The notes under the pieces: generated by a model
Databases searched by the model: none
The model's input: only the letters and a program-made list of their open reading frames with translations
Told to the model about the DNA's origin: nothing
Position numbers and translations under genes: made by a program
Shown here: in pieces, positions 34,272 to 39,896 of the stretch
Position numbering within the stretch: the stretch's first letter is position 1
Layout of the letters: every line of letters starts with the position of its first letter
Source: Bacteroidales bacterium
GTDB lineage: Bacteria; Bacteroidota; Bacteroidia; Bacteroidales; VadinHA17
Assembly: GCA_035360515.1 (NCBI GenBank)
Contig: DAOSAY010000001.1
Coordinates: 135,341 to 199,340 of the forward strand
DNA length: 64,000 bases
Direction of reading: 5' to 3'

Positions 34272-34730
34272 ATGAAAGAATTAAAAAATCTTTACAAAGA
34301 GCCAACTTCAAAAACTCCCGAAGTAGATTTTGACTCATTAACAGGCAATCTTATCCTGTCAGGAAGGTCCATACCTGAGAATGCAACCGATTTATATGAA
34401 CCACTATACAACTGGATAGTGGAGTATGCAAAGAATCCCAGACAGGTGACAAATTTAAGGCTCAATCTTGAGTATTTTAACACAGCCTCTTCGATATGGC
34501 TGGCCAAAATTGTAAAGGTTTTGAGTCATGTGGATGATCCTGATAAAATACTCTATATTCATCTCTATTTCAATGTGGAAGAATTTGACAATATGGAGAC
34601 TGAAGACATTAAGGATGCAATCAGTCCGGTAATTGATGTCCTTGGCGGGGCTACAATCAGCATAGGAATAAAAATATACGGTACCGACGAAAAAGGGGAA
34701 ATCATAAAAGAGTCAATGGTTCTAGTTTAG
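34272..34730 (+). CDS. DUF1987 / SiaC-like partner-switch phosphoprotein family member
   Basis: 152 aa. The pattern T.KTPEVDFD...G.L.LSGRSIPEN....Y.PL..W..EY......L.L.L.YFNTASS matches the DUF1987 (SiaC) N-terminal and core pattern as I remember it. Confidence 0.6.
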   Translation: MKELKNLYKEPTSKTPEVDFDSLTGNLILSGRSIPENATDLYEPLYNWIVEYAKNPRQVTNLRLNLEYFNTASSIWLAKIVKVLSHVDDPDKILYIHLYFNVEEFDNMETEDIKDAISPVIDVLGGATISIGIKIYGTDEKGEIIKESMVLV

Positions 34731-34803: not shown

Positions 34804-36309
34804 ATGCGATTTTTGTGTATTATATTAATATCAACACTATTTACAATGGAAATGTTTTCCCAGAGTAAAACCGGAGATCGTCAACCTGCTGCAGCAGGAA
34901 GGTTTTATCCGGCAAGCCGTGAAACTTTGCTTCGCGATCTCGAGCAAATGTTTGCATCATGTGATAAGTATCCAGAAAAATTAAAGGTAAGAGCAATTAT
35001 TGTCCCCCACGCTGGTTATATTTACTCAGGTAGAACGGCAGCTTCAGCATTTTCGACAATACCAGCAGATAGTAAATTCAAAAACATTTTTCTTATCGGC
35101 TCAAGCCATATTATGGCATTTGAAGGCGCCTCGGTTTATTATACGGGAGATTTTTTAACTCCTCTTGGAAAGATTACAGTAAATAAGGAAATTGCAGAAA
35201 AACTTCGAAAAGAGCACAGCGTTTTCAGGTTTCAGGAAAATGCTCATTCTCAGGAACATAGCCTTGAGGTTCAAGTTCCATTTATCCAATATTATTTCAA
35301 GAACCTTCAGCAAATTGTGCCAATAATTATTGGAACAAATAACAAAAATACCATTAAAACTATTGCCGAAGCTTTAAGACCATGGTTTACTCCGGAAAAC
35401 CTTTTCATTATCAGCAGTGATTTCTCCCACTACCCACCATATAAAGAAGCAAAAGAAGTGGATAATGCCACAGCTGATGCGATAGTATCAAAAGATCCTG
35501 AATTGTTTTTAAAGACTCTCTCACAAAACTCATCAAAAAGAATTCCGAACCTTGCTACAAGTATGTGTGGCTGGACTTCGGGGTTGATGCTTCTCTACCT
35601 TGTGAACAATGACCCGAACCTTGTATTCAAAAAAATAAGTTACTGTAATTCTGGCGATTCACAGTATGGCAATAAAGAAGAAGTTGTGGGTTACCACGCA
35701 ATAGTCCTTGCAGAGGTTCAGAAAAATAAACAACCAGCCGGTAATCAGTCGCAGGAAATGCAGTTTACACAGGAAGAAATTGACCAGATGTTCAAGATTG
35801 CCAGAAATTCAATTGCCACAATGCTTAATGAACACCGTAGACTTGTATTGAATCCTTCAGAGATTCTTCCGGGACTGAAGAGAAACCTGGGAGCTTTTGT
35901 TACTCTCAGAATTGATGGAAAACTAAGAGGATGTATTGGCAGATTTGTTTCGTCAGAGCCCCTATACGAAGTCATAAACCAGATGGCAATTGCATCGGCT
36001 TTCAACGACACCCGTTTTATGCCACTGACAAAGGAAGAATTCAAGAAAATTGAAATTGAAATATCTGTGCTTGGTCCTCTTAAAAGGATTAACAACATTT
36101 CCGAGATTATACTCGGAAAACACGGCATTTACATCAAAAAAGACTTCAGATCAGGTACCATGCTTCCGCAGGTGGCTACAGAGAATAAATGGACAGTTGA
36201 GGAGTTTCTTGGATATACCTCCCGTGAAAAAGCTGGTCTTGGATGGGATGGATGGAAAGATGCAGAATTATACGTTTATGAAGCACTGGTGCTTGAAGAA
36301 AAGAAATAA
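34804..36309 (+). CDS. fused AmmeMemoRadiSam system protein B (Memo-like) / protein A (AMMECR1-like)
   Basis: 501 aa. The N-terminal half has Memo blocks AAGRFYP, IVPHAGYIYSG, IISSDFSHY and SMCGW. The C-terminal half has AMMECR1 blocks GAFVTLRIDGKLRGCIGRF and GIYI...RSGTMLPQV. The first 20 aa are signal-peptide-like, but Met15/Met17 are alternative starts. Confidence 0.85.
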   Translation: MRFLCIILISTLFTMEMFSQSKTGDRQPAAAGRFYPASRETLLRDLEQMFASCDKYPEKLKVRAIIVPHAGYIYSGRTAASAFSTIPADSKFKNIFLIGSSHIMAFEGASVYYTGDFLTPLGKITVNKEIAEKLRKEHSVFRFQENAHSQEHSLEVQVPFIQYYFKNLQQIVPIIIGTNNKNTIKTIAEALRPWFTPENLFIISSDFSHYPPYKEAKEVDNATADAIVSKDPELFLKTLSQNSSKRIPNLATSMCGWTSGLMLLYLVNNDPNLVFKKISYCNSGDSQYGNKEEVVGYHAIVLAEVQKNKQPAGNQSQEMQFTQEEIDQMFKIARNSIATMLNEHRRLVLNPSEILPGLKRNLGAFVTLRIDGKLRGCIGRFVSSEPLYEVINQMAIASAFNDTRFMPLTKEEFKKIEIEISVLGPLKRINNISEIILGKHGIYIKKDFRSGTMLPQVATENKWTVEEFLGYTSREKAGLGWDGWKDAELYVYEALVLEEKK

Positions 36310-36315
36310 CAGATA

Positions 36316-38748
36316 ATGTATCATGTAATAAGTACAGGGACTGCAGTTTTTGTATTGTATCTGATATGTCATTTCTTTTATAAGTCAGGTTTTCTCTCCC
36401 TTGCCGACCACCGGAAAATATGGAATCTAATATTAGCGGTAACATTTATCACAACCGCATCAGCAGGTCTCATCCTGGCTCTGAAAGTAACATACAAATG
36501 GGAAAACAGTTTCTTTGACTCCCTGCTCAGATGGCATGTTGAGACAGGTATAGCGTTCTCTTTTACAGGGATAATTCATTTGCTGTGGCACCTCACATAT
36601 TTCAAAAACCTGTTCACTTACAAAAAGACGCTAACTGAAGAGATTCCTGTTTACAAACAGTCATATACTTCAAAACATTTTGCCGCCAATCTGTTCTTTA
36701 TAGGATATCTGAGCTCTTCAGTACAGTTATTGCTGATGAGAGAAATACTTAACATTTCAGGTGGATATGAATTGATAACAGGGACCTTTCTCGCATCATG
36801 GCTTATAAGTTCTGCAGCAGGCTCATATTATGCAGGAAAATCATTATTTAATAACCTGAAAAGAATAAATACTTTTTTTGCTATCAGCCCTATTCTCTCT
36901 CTTATAATGATGATCCTTTTCCACAGATTATATATCAACCCTGGTGAAACACCTTCCTTTCTTACAAGCATAATATTTAACATCCTTGTGCTTTTCCCGT
37001 TCTGCTTTGTTTCTGGATTTGTATTTATTAAAGTATTGACGGCCGCAAAACAAAATTATATTTATAATAGTGGTAAATCATTTTCAATAGAGACAACAGG
37101 AGGAATTGCGGCAGGACTTATTGTTACCCTGCTAACATCAGGCATCCTAAATACATATCAGATCCTGGCAATTTCTGTAATAATATTCCTGCTGTTTCTC
37201 ATAATGATGTATTTCAAACCTGATTTTAATATCAGACTAATTTCAATAGCGGCAAGTATTATATTAATACTTGTTAGCATCTGGCAGGGTCCAGACAAGT
37301 TTTTCAGACAGATTCTTCTAAAAGGAATAAATGTAGAATCTTCTTCCGACACCCCTTACGGCAACATAACAAAAGGAATATATGAGTTAGAGGAATCAAC
37401 ATACTATAATCACCGTATTATCAGATGGAAAAACGATGAAATTGAACGGGAGGAAAACATACATTATGCGATGCTTCAACATGATAACCCAGAAAAAATA
37501 CTCCTAATTTCAGGCGATCCATCCTCATGTATAAATGAGATTCTGAAATATAATGTGAAAAAAATATATTACGTTGAAAGAGATCCTGAACTGGTAAGAA
37601 CCTTTATGACTGAAAATTTTCCCGGCAAAGAAATAATGGCTATACAAAATGTTGATGCATACAGTTTTATCAGAAAGACCCACGAAAAATTCGATATTGT
37701 AATTATGATCCTCCCTCCCCCATCAACAATCCTTCTTAACCGGTACTATACAAAAGAATTTTTTGAAAATGTTAAGAAAAAGCTTAACGATGGGGGAATA
37801 TTCGCATGCACACCCGGGTCAGCTGAAAATTACTATAACTACCAGTCGGCATCATTGTATTCGGTAATTTATAATACTCTGGCATCTGTATTTAAGAATA
37901 TCCTTCCTGTTGCAGGTAATAAATTATATTTTATATCGTCTGATAATGAGCTGAGTACAAATATTTGCTCTCTCCTCGAAAAAAGGGGAATAAAAAATAT
38001 TTATGTAAGCTCCGATTATCTGGATGATGAATTAATTAAAATGAAATCCAATGAGATCCTCTCCATAATTGATTATAAGACACAAATTAACACTATTAAA
38101 CGTCCTATTGCATGTTTTCACTTTCAGTCATATAATCTGACTCGAGACCTGGGGAAAATTGTTCCTGCATTTGTTATTATGCTTATCCTTTTCTTCCTTC
38201 CTGTATTTACAATAAAACCCGTGAATTTTCCGATGTACTCTGCTGCAGCATCATTAGCTGGATTTGAAATATTAATCCTGATGTCCATTCAGTCATCGGC
38301 AGGTAATATTTACCATTTGACCGGACTTGTAATTGCTGCAATAATGGCCGGACTTTCTGCAGGTGCATGGATAAAACCTTTTTTCCCGGAGAAAAAACAT
38401 GTAAAATATTCCATGTTAATACTATTGACTTTTTATTTAATTACTGGAGTTATAATAAACAGGATAATTTTAATGAACAGTCCTGCTGTAGCAGTTGCAA
38501 TTTTACTAGTAATAAGTTTGATACCTTCGTTTATTACAGGTTCCATCTTTAAGGTCATGACTGAAACAGAGAGTACTAATCAAACACCTGCAGGTGTGTA
38601 CAGTTCCGATCTGGCAGGTTCTGCCCTCGGATTTATAGCAATATCTGGGGTTACGGTTCCTCTTGCAGGTTCCCTAAATACAATGCTGATAATATCCGGT
38701 TTAATCTTCATAGGATTTATATTTGCATTAATGTTTCAGAAATATTAA
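36316..38748 (+). CDS. polytopic membrane protein with embedded spermidine-synthase-like (class I SAM-fold) domain
   Basis: 810 aa with many hydrophobic helices before and after a soluble ~270 aa region. That region aligns by eye to SpeE: DTPYGNI..., EKILLISGDPSSCINEILKY.VKKIYYVERDPELV, DAYSFI....KFDIVIMILPPPS and YTKEFFE.VKKKL..GGIF. It starts 6 nt after the preceding gene. Confidence 0.7.
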   Translation: MYHVISTGTAVFVLYLICHFFYKSGFLSLADHRKIWNLILAVTFITTASAGLILALKVTYKWENSFFDSLLRWHVETGIAFSFTGIIHLLWHLTYFKNLFTYKKTLTEEIPVYKQSYTSKHFAANLFFIGYLSSSVQLLLMREILNISGGYELITGTFLASWLISSAAGSYYAGKSLFNNLKRINTFFAISPILSLIMMILFHRLYINPGETPSFLTSIIFNILVLFPFCFVSGFVFIKVLTAAKQNYIYNSGKSFSIETTGGIAAGLIVTLLTSGILNTYQILAISVIIFLLFLIMMYFKPDFNIRLISIAASIILILVSIWQGPDKFFRQILLKGINVESSSDTPYGNITKGIYELEESTYYNHRIIRWKNDEIEREENIHYAMLQHDNPEKILLISGDPSSCINEILKYNVKKIYYVERDPELVRTFMTENFPGKEIMAIQNVDAYSFIRKTHEKFDIVIMILPPPSTILLNRYYTKEFFENVKKKLNDGGIFACTPGSAENYYNYQSASLYSVIYNTLASVFKNILPVAGNKLYFISSDNELSTNICSLLEKRGIKNIYVSSDYLDDELIKMKSNEILSIIDYKTQINTIKRPIACFHFQSYNLTRDLGKIVPAFVIMLILFFLPVFTIKPVNFPMYSAAASLAGFEILILMSIQSSAGNIYHLTGLVIAAIMAGLSAGAWIKPFFPEKKHVKYSMLILLTFYLITGVIINRIILMNSPAVAVAILLVISLIPSFITGSIFKVMTETESTNQTPAGVYSSDLAGSALGFIAISGVTVPLAGSLNTMLIISGLIFIGFIFALMFQKY

Positions 38749-38768: not shown

Positions 38769-39896
38769 ATGAAAGGGAGGAAAATAAGCAAGCGGGAGTT
38801 TTTAAAAAGATGCTCAGTTGTTTCGGCTGGTTTTGTTTGTTTTTCACCGGAAATGCTCAGGGAAAATCCATTTTCTGAACAGAAAACCGGATTAAAACTG
38901 GCAATGTATCAGGAAGAAACACCAAGAGGTATAATGTGCAGGATATGTCCAAATGAATGTGAGTTGAAGGAAGGGGAAGTAAGCAAATGCAATAATCGGA
39001 AAGTTATCAAATCGAAACTTTATACGATGGCTTACGGCAATCCCTGTTCGGTAAATATCGACCCTATCGAGAAAAAACCATTTTATCACTTTTTCCCTGG
39101 TACAAGGGCATATTCCATTGCAACAGCTGGTTGCAACCTTGCATGCTTAAACTGTCAGAACTGGTCTATATCCCAGACCAGTCCGGATAAGACAAGGAAC
39201 TATACGTTACCACCTGAAAAGGTTGTTGAGGAGTGTCTGAATCTGAAATGCAAGTCTATTGCTTACACTTATTCCGAGCCGGTTTCCTTTTATGAATATT
39301 CGTACGATACAGCAGTACTGGCAAAAGCAGCAGGTATTAAAAATGTTTTCAAGTCGAATGGTTACATAAACAGAGAACCTCTTGAAAAACTCTGCGGAGT
39401 GCTGGATGCTGCGAATATTGATCTTAAATCTTTCAGTGAAAGCACATATCTAAGGTTATCGGGCGGTAAACTTCAGCCCGTTCTTGAATCGCTTAAAATA
39501 TACCGTGACAATGGTGTATGGCTTGAAATTACAAACCTTATTGTTCCAACCTGGACTGACAAGCCTGAGGAAATAAGAAATATGTGCCGCTGGCTTTACA
39601 AGAACGGTTTTGCTTCAACACCATTACACTTCAGCAGATTTTATCCGGTCTACAAGCTCGAACAGTTACCTCCTACTCCGCTGAACATTCTGAATCAGGC
39701 TGCAAAAATAGCTGCCGAAGAAGGAATACAATATATTTATATTGGCAACGTACCGGGGAACGAAATGGCTGATACCAGATGTCCTTCGTGCAACACTACT
39801 GTAATTAAAAGGACAGGATACCGGATAGATTTCAACAAGATAACTGATGGCAAATGTCCATCGTGTGGCAAAAAGATAGATGGAATATGGAATTAG
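38769..39896 (+). CDS. AmmeMemoRadiSam system radical SAM enzyme
   Basis: 375 aa. Radical SAM cluster motif GCNLACLNCQNW, an N-proximal CRICPNEC and a C-terminal CPSC...CPSC zinc-ribbon-like pair. The fold is PflA-like. The 45-aa N-terminal extension contains SKREFLK. Confidence 0.85.
   Translation: MKGRKISKREFLKRCSVVSAGFVCFSPEMLRENPFSEQKTGLKLAMYQEETPRGIMCRICPNECELKEGEVSKCNNRKVIKSKLYTMAYGNPCSVNIDPIEKKPFYHFFPGTRAYSIATAGCNLACLNCQNWSISQTSPDKTRNYTLPPEKVVEECLNLKCKSIAYTYSEPVSFYEYSYDTAVLAKAAGIKNVFKSNGYINREPLEKLCGVLDAANIDLKSFSESTYLRLSGGKLQPVLESLKIYRDNGVWLEITNLIVPTWTDKPEEIRNMCRWLYKNGFASTPLHFSRFYPVYKLEQLPPTPLNILNQAAKIAAEEGIQYIYIGNVPGNEMADTRCPSCNTTVIKRTGYRIDFNKITDGKCPSCGKKIDGIWN

Follow-up and report, generated by a model that had tools for sequence, protein, structure and literature searches.

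A conserved Lys-Arg leader of the twin-arginine type on an AmmeMemoRadiSam radical SAM enzyme of a Bacteroidales bacterium, and the probable location of its system outside the cytoplasm

Radical S-adenosylmethionine (SAM) enzymes are regarded as confined to the cytoplasm, as they need SAM and a reductant near -450 mV and carry oxygen-sensitive clusters. Why, then, should one of them, in the Bacteroidales bacterium of assembly GCA_035360515.1, start with a peptide resembling the signals for twin-arginine translocation (Tat)? The question is raised by a 64,000 nt stretch of contig DAOSAY010000001.1 (positions 135,341 to 199,340), the whole of which is referred to here as the window. It includes three genes on the + strand in the order Memo-AMMECR1 fusion, 810-amino-acid membrane protein and radical SAM enzyme, the last being an open reading frame (ORF) of 375 amino acids at 38769..39896 (+) that starts with MKGRKISKREFLKRCSVVSAGFVCFSPEMLRENPFSEQKTGLKLAMYQEE. 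Judging from the computational evidence, it is rather likely that the folded enzyme is exported by Tat through residues 1 to about 27, with Lys in place of the first Arg of the motif. Since the enzyme has a conserved Lys-Arg (K-R) leader and its Memo-AMMECR1 partner has a signal of the general secretory (Sec) type, the whole system, enzyme and partner, is probably outside the cytoplasm.

The ORF follows the membrane gene, whose TAA lies at 38746..38748, with a gap of 20 nt. It is a full member of TIGR04337, the model of the AmmeMemoRadiSam radical SAM enzyme (343.3 bits, cut-off 220), and scores 69.6 bits with PF04055. As the TIGR04337 match begins only at residue 53 (profile position 10), residues 1 to about 45 are an N-terminal extension; the feature, taken as residues 1-46 (38769..38906, +) and lying outside the profile match, is made up of a putative Tat-type leader and a linker. 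A sequence-only reading of this DNA had already noticed the 20 nt spacing, the segment S-K-R-E-F-L-K at S7-K13 (38787..38807, +) and Met46 at 38904..38906, and these coordinates were all found to be right. Its further suggestion that the enzyme core appears to begin only at Met46 needs a small correction: the folded core begins slightly earlier, since the AlphaFold2 model of the whole enzyme (mean predicted local distance difference test, pLDDT, 85.0) is confident from about residue 41. Leaderless relatives begin about 12-30 residues ahead of their first CxxCxxxC motif.

The first matter to settle is whether the extension is made at all. It could be an annotation artefact, with translation starting from Met46 (38904) and the upstream frame open by chance, and both the profile match from residue 53 and four database homologues that were called from internal starts would fit this. 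We find it hardly credible, as the amino acids of the motif are conserved down to 53% overall identity. The leader was kept in all 80 Bacteroidota loci, taken from one genome per species and 53-99% identical, and of the top 120 homologues in the database, which are 69-98% identical, 115 have K-R-x-F in this position; the other five are the four N-terminally truncated gene calls and one sequence with K-L. Arg9 and Phe11 are invariant in an alignment of 43 sequences, in which the linker is variable. On the other hand, the position of Met46 is not invariant (of the 115 homologues, 102 have Met there, 12 have Leu and one has Phe), and thus a conserved internal start is unlikely. A GGGAGGG run ends 3 nt ahead of the ATG at 38769, whereas inspection of the sequence ahead of the ATG of Met46 revealed nothing like it. 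Orthologues have the extension and do not start at the Met46 position, where a start was one of the outcomes that the sequence-only reading had named as fatal to its proposal, and the extension, on this comparative evidence, is translated and conserved.

Is the extension then a Tat signal? The earlier description of a motif resembling the Tat consensus, followed by a mildly hydrophobic stretch, fits the sequence. Compared with the consensus S/T-R-R-x-F-L-K, the first Arg is replaced by Lys; across the 80 loci this position (position 8) is Lys in 62 and Arg in 18. The motif rule applied to these loci flagged 62 K-R and two R-R forms, while the 16 that it returned as "other" read T/S-R-R-x-F-A/T-R and were counted as R-R. 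The motif lies 8-13 residues from the N-terminus and is followed by a hydrophobic region (h-region; C15-P27, 38811..38849, +) of 13 uncharged residues, which is moderately hydrophobic with a mean Kyte-Doolittle hydropathy of 1.58, and then by a hydrophilic linker (E28-A45, 38850..38903, +) that varies in length and sequence among orthologues and has no canonical AxA in the window copy. In many orthologues, however, a site resembling AxA comes some 25-30 residues after the N-terminus. AlphaFold2 predicts a lone helix at residues 8-23 (pLDDT 68-75), with pLDDT below 50 for linker residues 29-38, and in this model the leader stands apart from the enzyme fold. Other roles for the leader cysteines were considered and rejected: a lipoprotein signal, as the residue before the conserved h-region Cys is bulky and hydrophobic, and a cluster site formed by C15 and C24, as neither is conserved across the wider clade.

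Among 3,534 open frames of at least 120 amino acids in the genome, [RK]-R-x-F-[LIVM] occurred in 52 R-R and six K-R leader-like placements versus 39 internal ones, and by this count the leader motif is more than a chance occurrence. The 52 R-R leaders of the genome served to build a flank-only matrix, restricted to positions that are not selected by the motif. With it, the window leader scored -0.7, above all of the 39 internal motif controls (maximum -11.1). The 80 orthologues had a median of 9.2, with the R-R clade reaching 20-22, and 79 of them were above every control; the remaining one, L075, offers two motif candidates that overlap, and its low score was taken as mis-anchoring of the matrix window. 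The Tat genes that the sequence-only reading had proposed to look for are present in the genome, namely tatC (219.8 bits) and two TatA_B_E genes (68.2 and 62.2 bits). As for the Lys, a single R-to-K change merely slows Tat export and is tolerated according to the relevant passages of PMC6708511, where TtrB is given as the only known native K-R Tat cargo.

Besides about 52 N-terminal R-R-x-F-[LIVM] leaders, the genome has three further signal-like K-R leaders in addition to that of the window, K-R leaders being a small minority. N-terminal K-R leaders were seen on a class-V aminotransferase (L160, C27:34989..36245, -) and on an enolase-superfamily (MR/MLE) protein (L161, C34:9539..10678, +), the latter with a sub-threshold match to Pfam TAT_signal (17.1 bits vs 22.7). 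A flavodoxin-domain protein of 202 amino acids (PF12724; L162, C35:21099..21704, -) has a K-R-x-F-I-K leader and is a candidate exported reductant. One query with this protein, at E up to 1e-8, found no homologue in the 10 more distant leader-bearing genomes of the sample described below, and it was rejected as a conserved partner.

The second line of evidence comes from the partner. The Memo-AMMECR1 fusion (34804..36309, +; 501 amino acids; PF01875 and PF01871) scores 245.2 bits with TIGR04336 and 161 bits with TIGR04335, so the enzyme has the neighbourhood expected of an AmmeMemoRadiSam locus. Residues 1-20 of the fusion (34804..34863, +) form a hydrophobic segment ahead of the domains, which reads as a Sec-type signal, starts with M-R, reaches a 10-residue hydropathy of 2.87 and ends in F-S-Q. 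A strongly hydrophobic segment before the domains was detected in all 65 fusion orthologues with an intact N-terminus, and in 58 of the 65 a small residue followed by Gln stands near its end, which fits the Q-rule for signal peptidase I substrates of Bacteroidetes as outlined in parts of PMC5837995 and PMC10653852. By these sequence criteria, the signal of the fusion is of the Sec/signal peptidase I kind. The maximum 10-residue hydropathy of the enzyme's leader had a median of 1.92 (n=80) versus 2.99 for the Sec-type signals of the partner (n=65), among related loci that are not independent samples, so that the p-value of the difference is too favourable. Lower hydropathy is the direction expected of Tat compared with Sec signals.

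Within the 80 leader loci, a homologue of the membrane gene was found in 76 and the fusion was syntenic in 67. We also took an even sample of the phylum (401 genomes, 102 of them with TIGR04337), at which the 30 best-scoring TIGR04337 loci were all leaderless and 40 further loci were divided into 10 with a leader (one R-R, nine K-R) and 30 without. The Memo neighbour had a hydrophobic signal in eight of eight leader loci, those whose Memo N-terminus lies on the DNA examined, versus none of six leaderless loci. The membrane gene was present in eight of the 10 leader loci and in none of the 30 leaderless loci; in the two leader loci without it, the contig ends in one and none was found within range in the other. 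Thus, co-variation of the leader with a signal on the Memo/AMMECR1 partner and with the membrane gene, which the sequence-only reading had suggested checking, was seen for both.

The same genome provides an internal control. A second TIGR04337 gene (L084, C26:19594..20595, +; 333 amino acids, 348.3 bits) is leaderless, and neither a Memo nor an AMMECR1 gene lies beside it; the whole genome has a single Memo domain and a single AMMECR1 domain. The nearest cluster representative of this second enzyme in the family search is P0247, with 58% identity.

How far does the leader extend beyond the close relatives? Trees were quick searches, unrooted and without bootstraps, and ORFs of related loci were taken by a longest-ORF rule. 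On a tree of 152 cores, 90 of the 91 leader-bearing rows fall on one side of the starred branch, the exception being L121, a long-branched R-R form, and about four changes between K-R and R-R are needed. From 1.84 billion cluster representatives, 7,079 matches were obtained at E up to 0.001, and among the best 150, which were examined, a fixed rule found 27 R-R leaders and one K-R leader. Six more leaders were recognized by eye in these 150, including one K-R and two R-K forms, and overall about 33 of the 150 have Tat-like leaders, almost always R-R. The sources of the leader-bearing representatives include Desulfatibacillaceae and Planctomycetota.

Other members of the family carry membrane domains or signals of a different kind. 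P0143 and P0147 are fused to FMN_bind and have a single membrane helix, which lies N-terminally, ahead of the fused domains; P0126, P0140 and P0133 are fused to FMN_bind together with NosR/NapH-type Fer4_5 membrane domains; P0122, P0138 and P0133 are fused to DsbD_2; and in P0125 and P0129 a propeller or CBM_11 fusion stands behind a signal. On a tree of 174 rows, 45 leader forms and 16 membrane or signal fusions all fall in one group of 77 rows (support 81, not starred). These 61 forms need five changes versus a shuffled mean near 50, and the K-R clade sits within the R-R forms. The window thus shows the local K-R form of a habit that the wider family shares. Radical SAM, Memo and AMMECR1 domains are joined in one natural chain in P0127, P0137, P0206, P0214 and P0234, and these single-chain fusions argue, at the level of domain architecture, for one compartment. 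The P0127 form, with Memo, AMMECR1 and radical SAM domains in the chain (835 amino acids), was seen from three sources (P0127, P0271 and P0272).

Some of these fusions raise another explanation, namely that the leader is a general Sec/YidC signal or a membrane anchor that works independently of Tat. Plainly Sec-like N-termini do stand ahead of the same, intact radical SAM domain in P0127, P0129, P0125 and P0147. In the case of the window and its orthologues, we regard this as quite improbable, given the invariant Arg-x-Phe core and a leader hydropathy well under that of the partner's Sec signals; the cargo would also need at least two metal centres to be built before transport, and iron-sulfur assembly is known to be cytoplasmic.

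The reading of the leader as a Tat signal has a number of points to face. The motif is K-R rather than R-R, and the h-region has just 13 residues. Neither Pfam TAT_signal (PF10518) nor the NCBIfam Tat-signal model, which we take to be TIGR01409, matched the 46-residue leader at E up to 10 or the whole protein. The flank score of -0.7 is below that of 41 of the 52 R-R leaders (leave-one-out median 15.8), and the window leader lacks, after the h-region, a -3/-1 site of the A-x-A type free of Pro at +1. The presence of tatC says little, since it was found in 10 of 10 leader-bearing sample genomes yet also in 398 of the 401 genomes of the phylum sample. The relatives compared are nearly all metagenome bins and not independent samples. 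Tat logic does not explain the four fusions in which a Sec-like signal precedes the radical SAM domain, and we know of no mechanism for Sec export of an iron-sulfur domain, while P0137 has an N-terminal helix with charges suggesting a cytoplasmic orientation. Neither SAM nor a low-potential reductant is known to be supplied in the periplasm. A full-text literature search gave no radical SAM enzyme reported as exported or directed to Tat, although a mention in Burroughs et al. 2019 is possible.

Several of these points would suit a different explanation, at which the Tat-like peptide no longer exports the enzyme and instead docks it on the cytoplasmic face of the membrane, for example to the membrane protein or to a chaperone. 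Cytoplasmic enzymes with a vestigial Tat motif are known, NarG being one, and the K-R motif, the failure to match the Tat models, the low flank score, the lack of a cleavage site in the window copy, the strict co-occurrence with the membrane gene and the apparently tethered, cytoplasmically oriented P0137 all agree with docking. SAM and reductant, with no known periplasmic supply, would then be at hand, and a substrate or product would have to cross to the exported Memo-AMMECR1 protein. We consider both the docking and this crossing unlikely, although less so than Tat-independent insertion. The partner is exported by a predicted Sec signal in all 65 loci, the three-domain single-chain fusions suit one compartment, and the K-R forms are intermingled with R-R forms that have AxA-like sites. 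Moreover, P0143 and P0147 are fused straight to FMN_bind, with no membrane helix between, and FMN_bind is a domain family described as extracytosolic in PMC8238504. Between the alternatives that the sequence-only reading had left side by side, unusual compartmentation of the system is thus favoured by the partner signals and by the co-variation, and a cytoplasmic docking device less so.

In the favoured case of Tat export, the enzyme would fold and gain its iron-sulfur clusters in the cytoplasm, and TatABC would then bring it across the inner membrane in its folded state. As the window copy has no canonical signal peptidase site, its leader may stay on as a tether, while many orthologues do have an AxA-like site. 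The Memo-AMMECR1 partner would be delivered separately through Sec and signal peptidase I. The 810-amino-acid membrane protein, with its SpeE-like domain turned outward, would be a third, clade-specific component, and the three proteins would work jointly on the periplasmic side of the inner membrane. Export itself, the side of the SpeE-like domain and any supply of SAM or electrons are steps that we infer.

What could the membrane protein bring to such a system? The protein (36316..38748, +) is polytopic, with 10 predicted transmembrane helices followed by a SpeE-like domain of the spermidine synthase fold (residues 324-614, 37285..38157, +) and then about six to seven more helices. It scores 61.4 bits with PF01564 (cut-off 22.9), and its AlphaFold2 model (pLDDT 87.1, predicted template modelling score 0.87) includes a complete SpeE fold at about residues 335-600. 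Foldseek matched the SpeE-like domain to 1UIR and 6BQ2 with a TM-score of about 0.70 normalised by target; the solved structures that it matched to the protein were soluble SpeE structures only, with none for the membrane part. No Pfam family matched the membrane blocks, including the N-terminal module described below, and in the Atlas the membrane part was found among "spermidine synthase family" clusters only.

The D-x-x-D-P segment of solved aminopropyltransferases, whose two acidic residues are catalytic, aligns with I-L-P-P-P, which places these two opposite hydrophobic residues and proline, when the protein is compared with 6BQ2 and 1UIR, and P-P-P-S-T is the consensus at this segment across 30 orthologues. 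As the acidic residues are replaced, the protein was not filed as an aminopropyltransferase. E421 and D447, on the other hand, are conserved and align with acidic positions of 6BQ2 and 1UIR that take part in nucleotide binding. The orientation was judged from Lys and Arg in the short loops of 56 orthologues. With the AlphaFold helices, the domain side had 4.8 versus 14.0 on the opposite side for the N-terminal block, and 2.4 versus 4.9 for the C-terminal block; with helices defined by hydropathy, the values were 3.9 versus 23.1. From this excess of Lys and Arg opposite the domain, the positive-inside rule predicts a periplasmic location for the SpeE-like domain.

The N-terminal part of the protein (36316..36591, +) is a three-helix membrane module with conserved histidines. 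H32, H74, H88 and H92 are conserved in 88-100% of the 56 orthologues and H3 in 75%, and we can only guess that the module binds a cofactor, haem for example. Perhaps the membrane protein is what enables a complete radical SAM system in the periplasm, its SpeE-like domain handling SAM or nucleoside products together with an electron carrier. This is a possibility that we put forward tentatively and hold as less probable than export itself. In it, the SpeE-like domain, facing outward and with its catalytic residues altered, would bind SAM or its nucleoside products or pass them on, while electrons would be brought across the membrane by the His-rich module or by a carrier such as the flavodoxin-domain protein with the K-R leader.

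Comparison with known systems shows which of these features are particular to the locus. The system resembles the canonical AmmeMemoRadiSam set (TIGR04335 for A, TIGR04336 for B, and TIGR04337), as all three models score above cut-off and the cysteines of the enzyme are invariant. The canonical enzymes examined have no leader (30 of the 30 top-scoring and 30 of the 40 further loci), and at leaderless loci no Memo neighbour had a signal (0 of 6) and no membrane gene was found (0 of 30), whereas in the window A and B are fused and preceded by a Sec signal, the membrane gene lies between fusion and enzyme, and the enzyme has the K-R leader. The family as a whole received passing mentions only in the literature searched.

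TtrB of tetrathionate reductase is similar in having a motif of the K-R-x-F-L-K type ahead of an iron-sulfur cluster protein, but it is a respiratory electron-transfer subunit with no sequence relationship to the window enzyme, and the match of the TtrB model to one enzyme homologue (E = 0.28) is meaningless. The models of membrane-bound spermidine-synthase-family proteins (NF002956/PRK03612) and of fused MFS/spermidine synthase (NF037959) match the membrane protein weakly, with 73.6 and 19.5 bits, far below the cut-offs of 472 and 40, and, compared with proteins of the spermidine synthase family, the window protein has an extra His-rich three-helix module and a second membrane block. Extracytosolic flavinylated modules (FMN_bind PF04205, NosR/NapH-type Fer4_5 and DsbD_2) are fused to relatives of the enzyme, but the cassette of the window has no FMN_bind, Fer4_5 or DsbD_2 module. 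The term "radical SAM" does not occur in the flavinylation survey PMC8238504.

The core of the enzyme (38904..39896, +) has an auxiliary CxxCxxxC motif (C57-C64, 38937..38960, +), the CX3CX2C motif (C122, C126 and C129; 39132..39155, +) and, further on the + strand within the core, a C-terminal CxxC...CxxC module (C338-C366), and the cysteines of all of these are invariant in the 43-sequence alignment. Its closest solved structure, both by sequence (E 1.1e-6) and by fold, is PflA (PDB 3C8F/3CB8), the enzyme model giving a TM-score of 0.78 with 3CB8 when normalised by target. PflA differs in that its 245 amino acids include neither a leader nor an N-terminal CxxCxxxC motif, and the C-terminal CxxC...CxxC module is likewise missing; with 52.8 bits in TIGR02493 against a cut-off of 231.75 the window enzyme is not a PflA. 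In the family representatives P0171, P0181 and P0213, an intein with a LAGLIDADG homing-endonuclease domain is inserted within the radical SAM domain.

Upstream of the Memo-AMMECR1 gene by about 70 nt and on the same strand lies a gene of the SiaC family (34272..34730, +; PF09345, 79.9 bits). It is placed likewise in 36 of the 80 related loci (L004-L043 and L051), which indicates a four-gene arrangement in a closer subclade. Further conserved genes of the cassette were looked for in the gaps of 15 irregular loci and were rejected, as the ORFs there, judged from their first residues, are either cassette genes broken up by frameshifts or unrelated.

Specific to the window are thus the conserved K-R clade, the control given by the leaderless paralogue and the membrane partner with its SpeE-like domain. 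To our knowledge, radical SAM chemistry outside the cytoplasm has not been described before. A large and conserved lineage in which each soluble component bears an export signal would imply either that SAM and low-potential electrons get to the periplasm of many anaerobes, or that the signals serve another purpose. If the leaders do direct export, TtrB, the only native K-R case named in PMC6708511, would be joined by an entire clade of such Tat signals. The location, if true, would also give the uncharacterised Memo/AMMECR1 family, its human members included, a cellular starting point.

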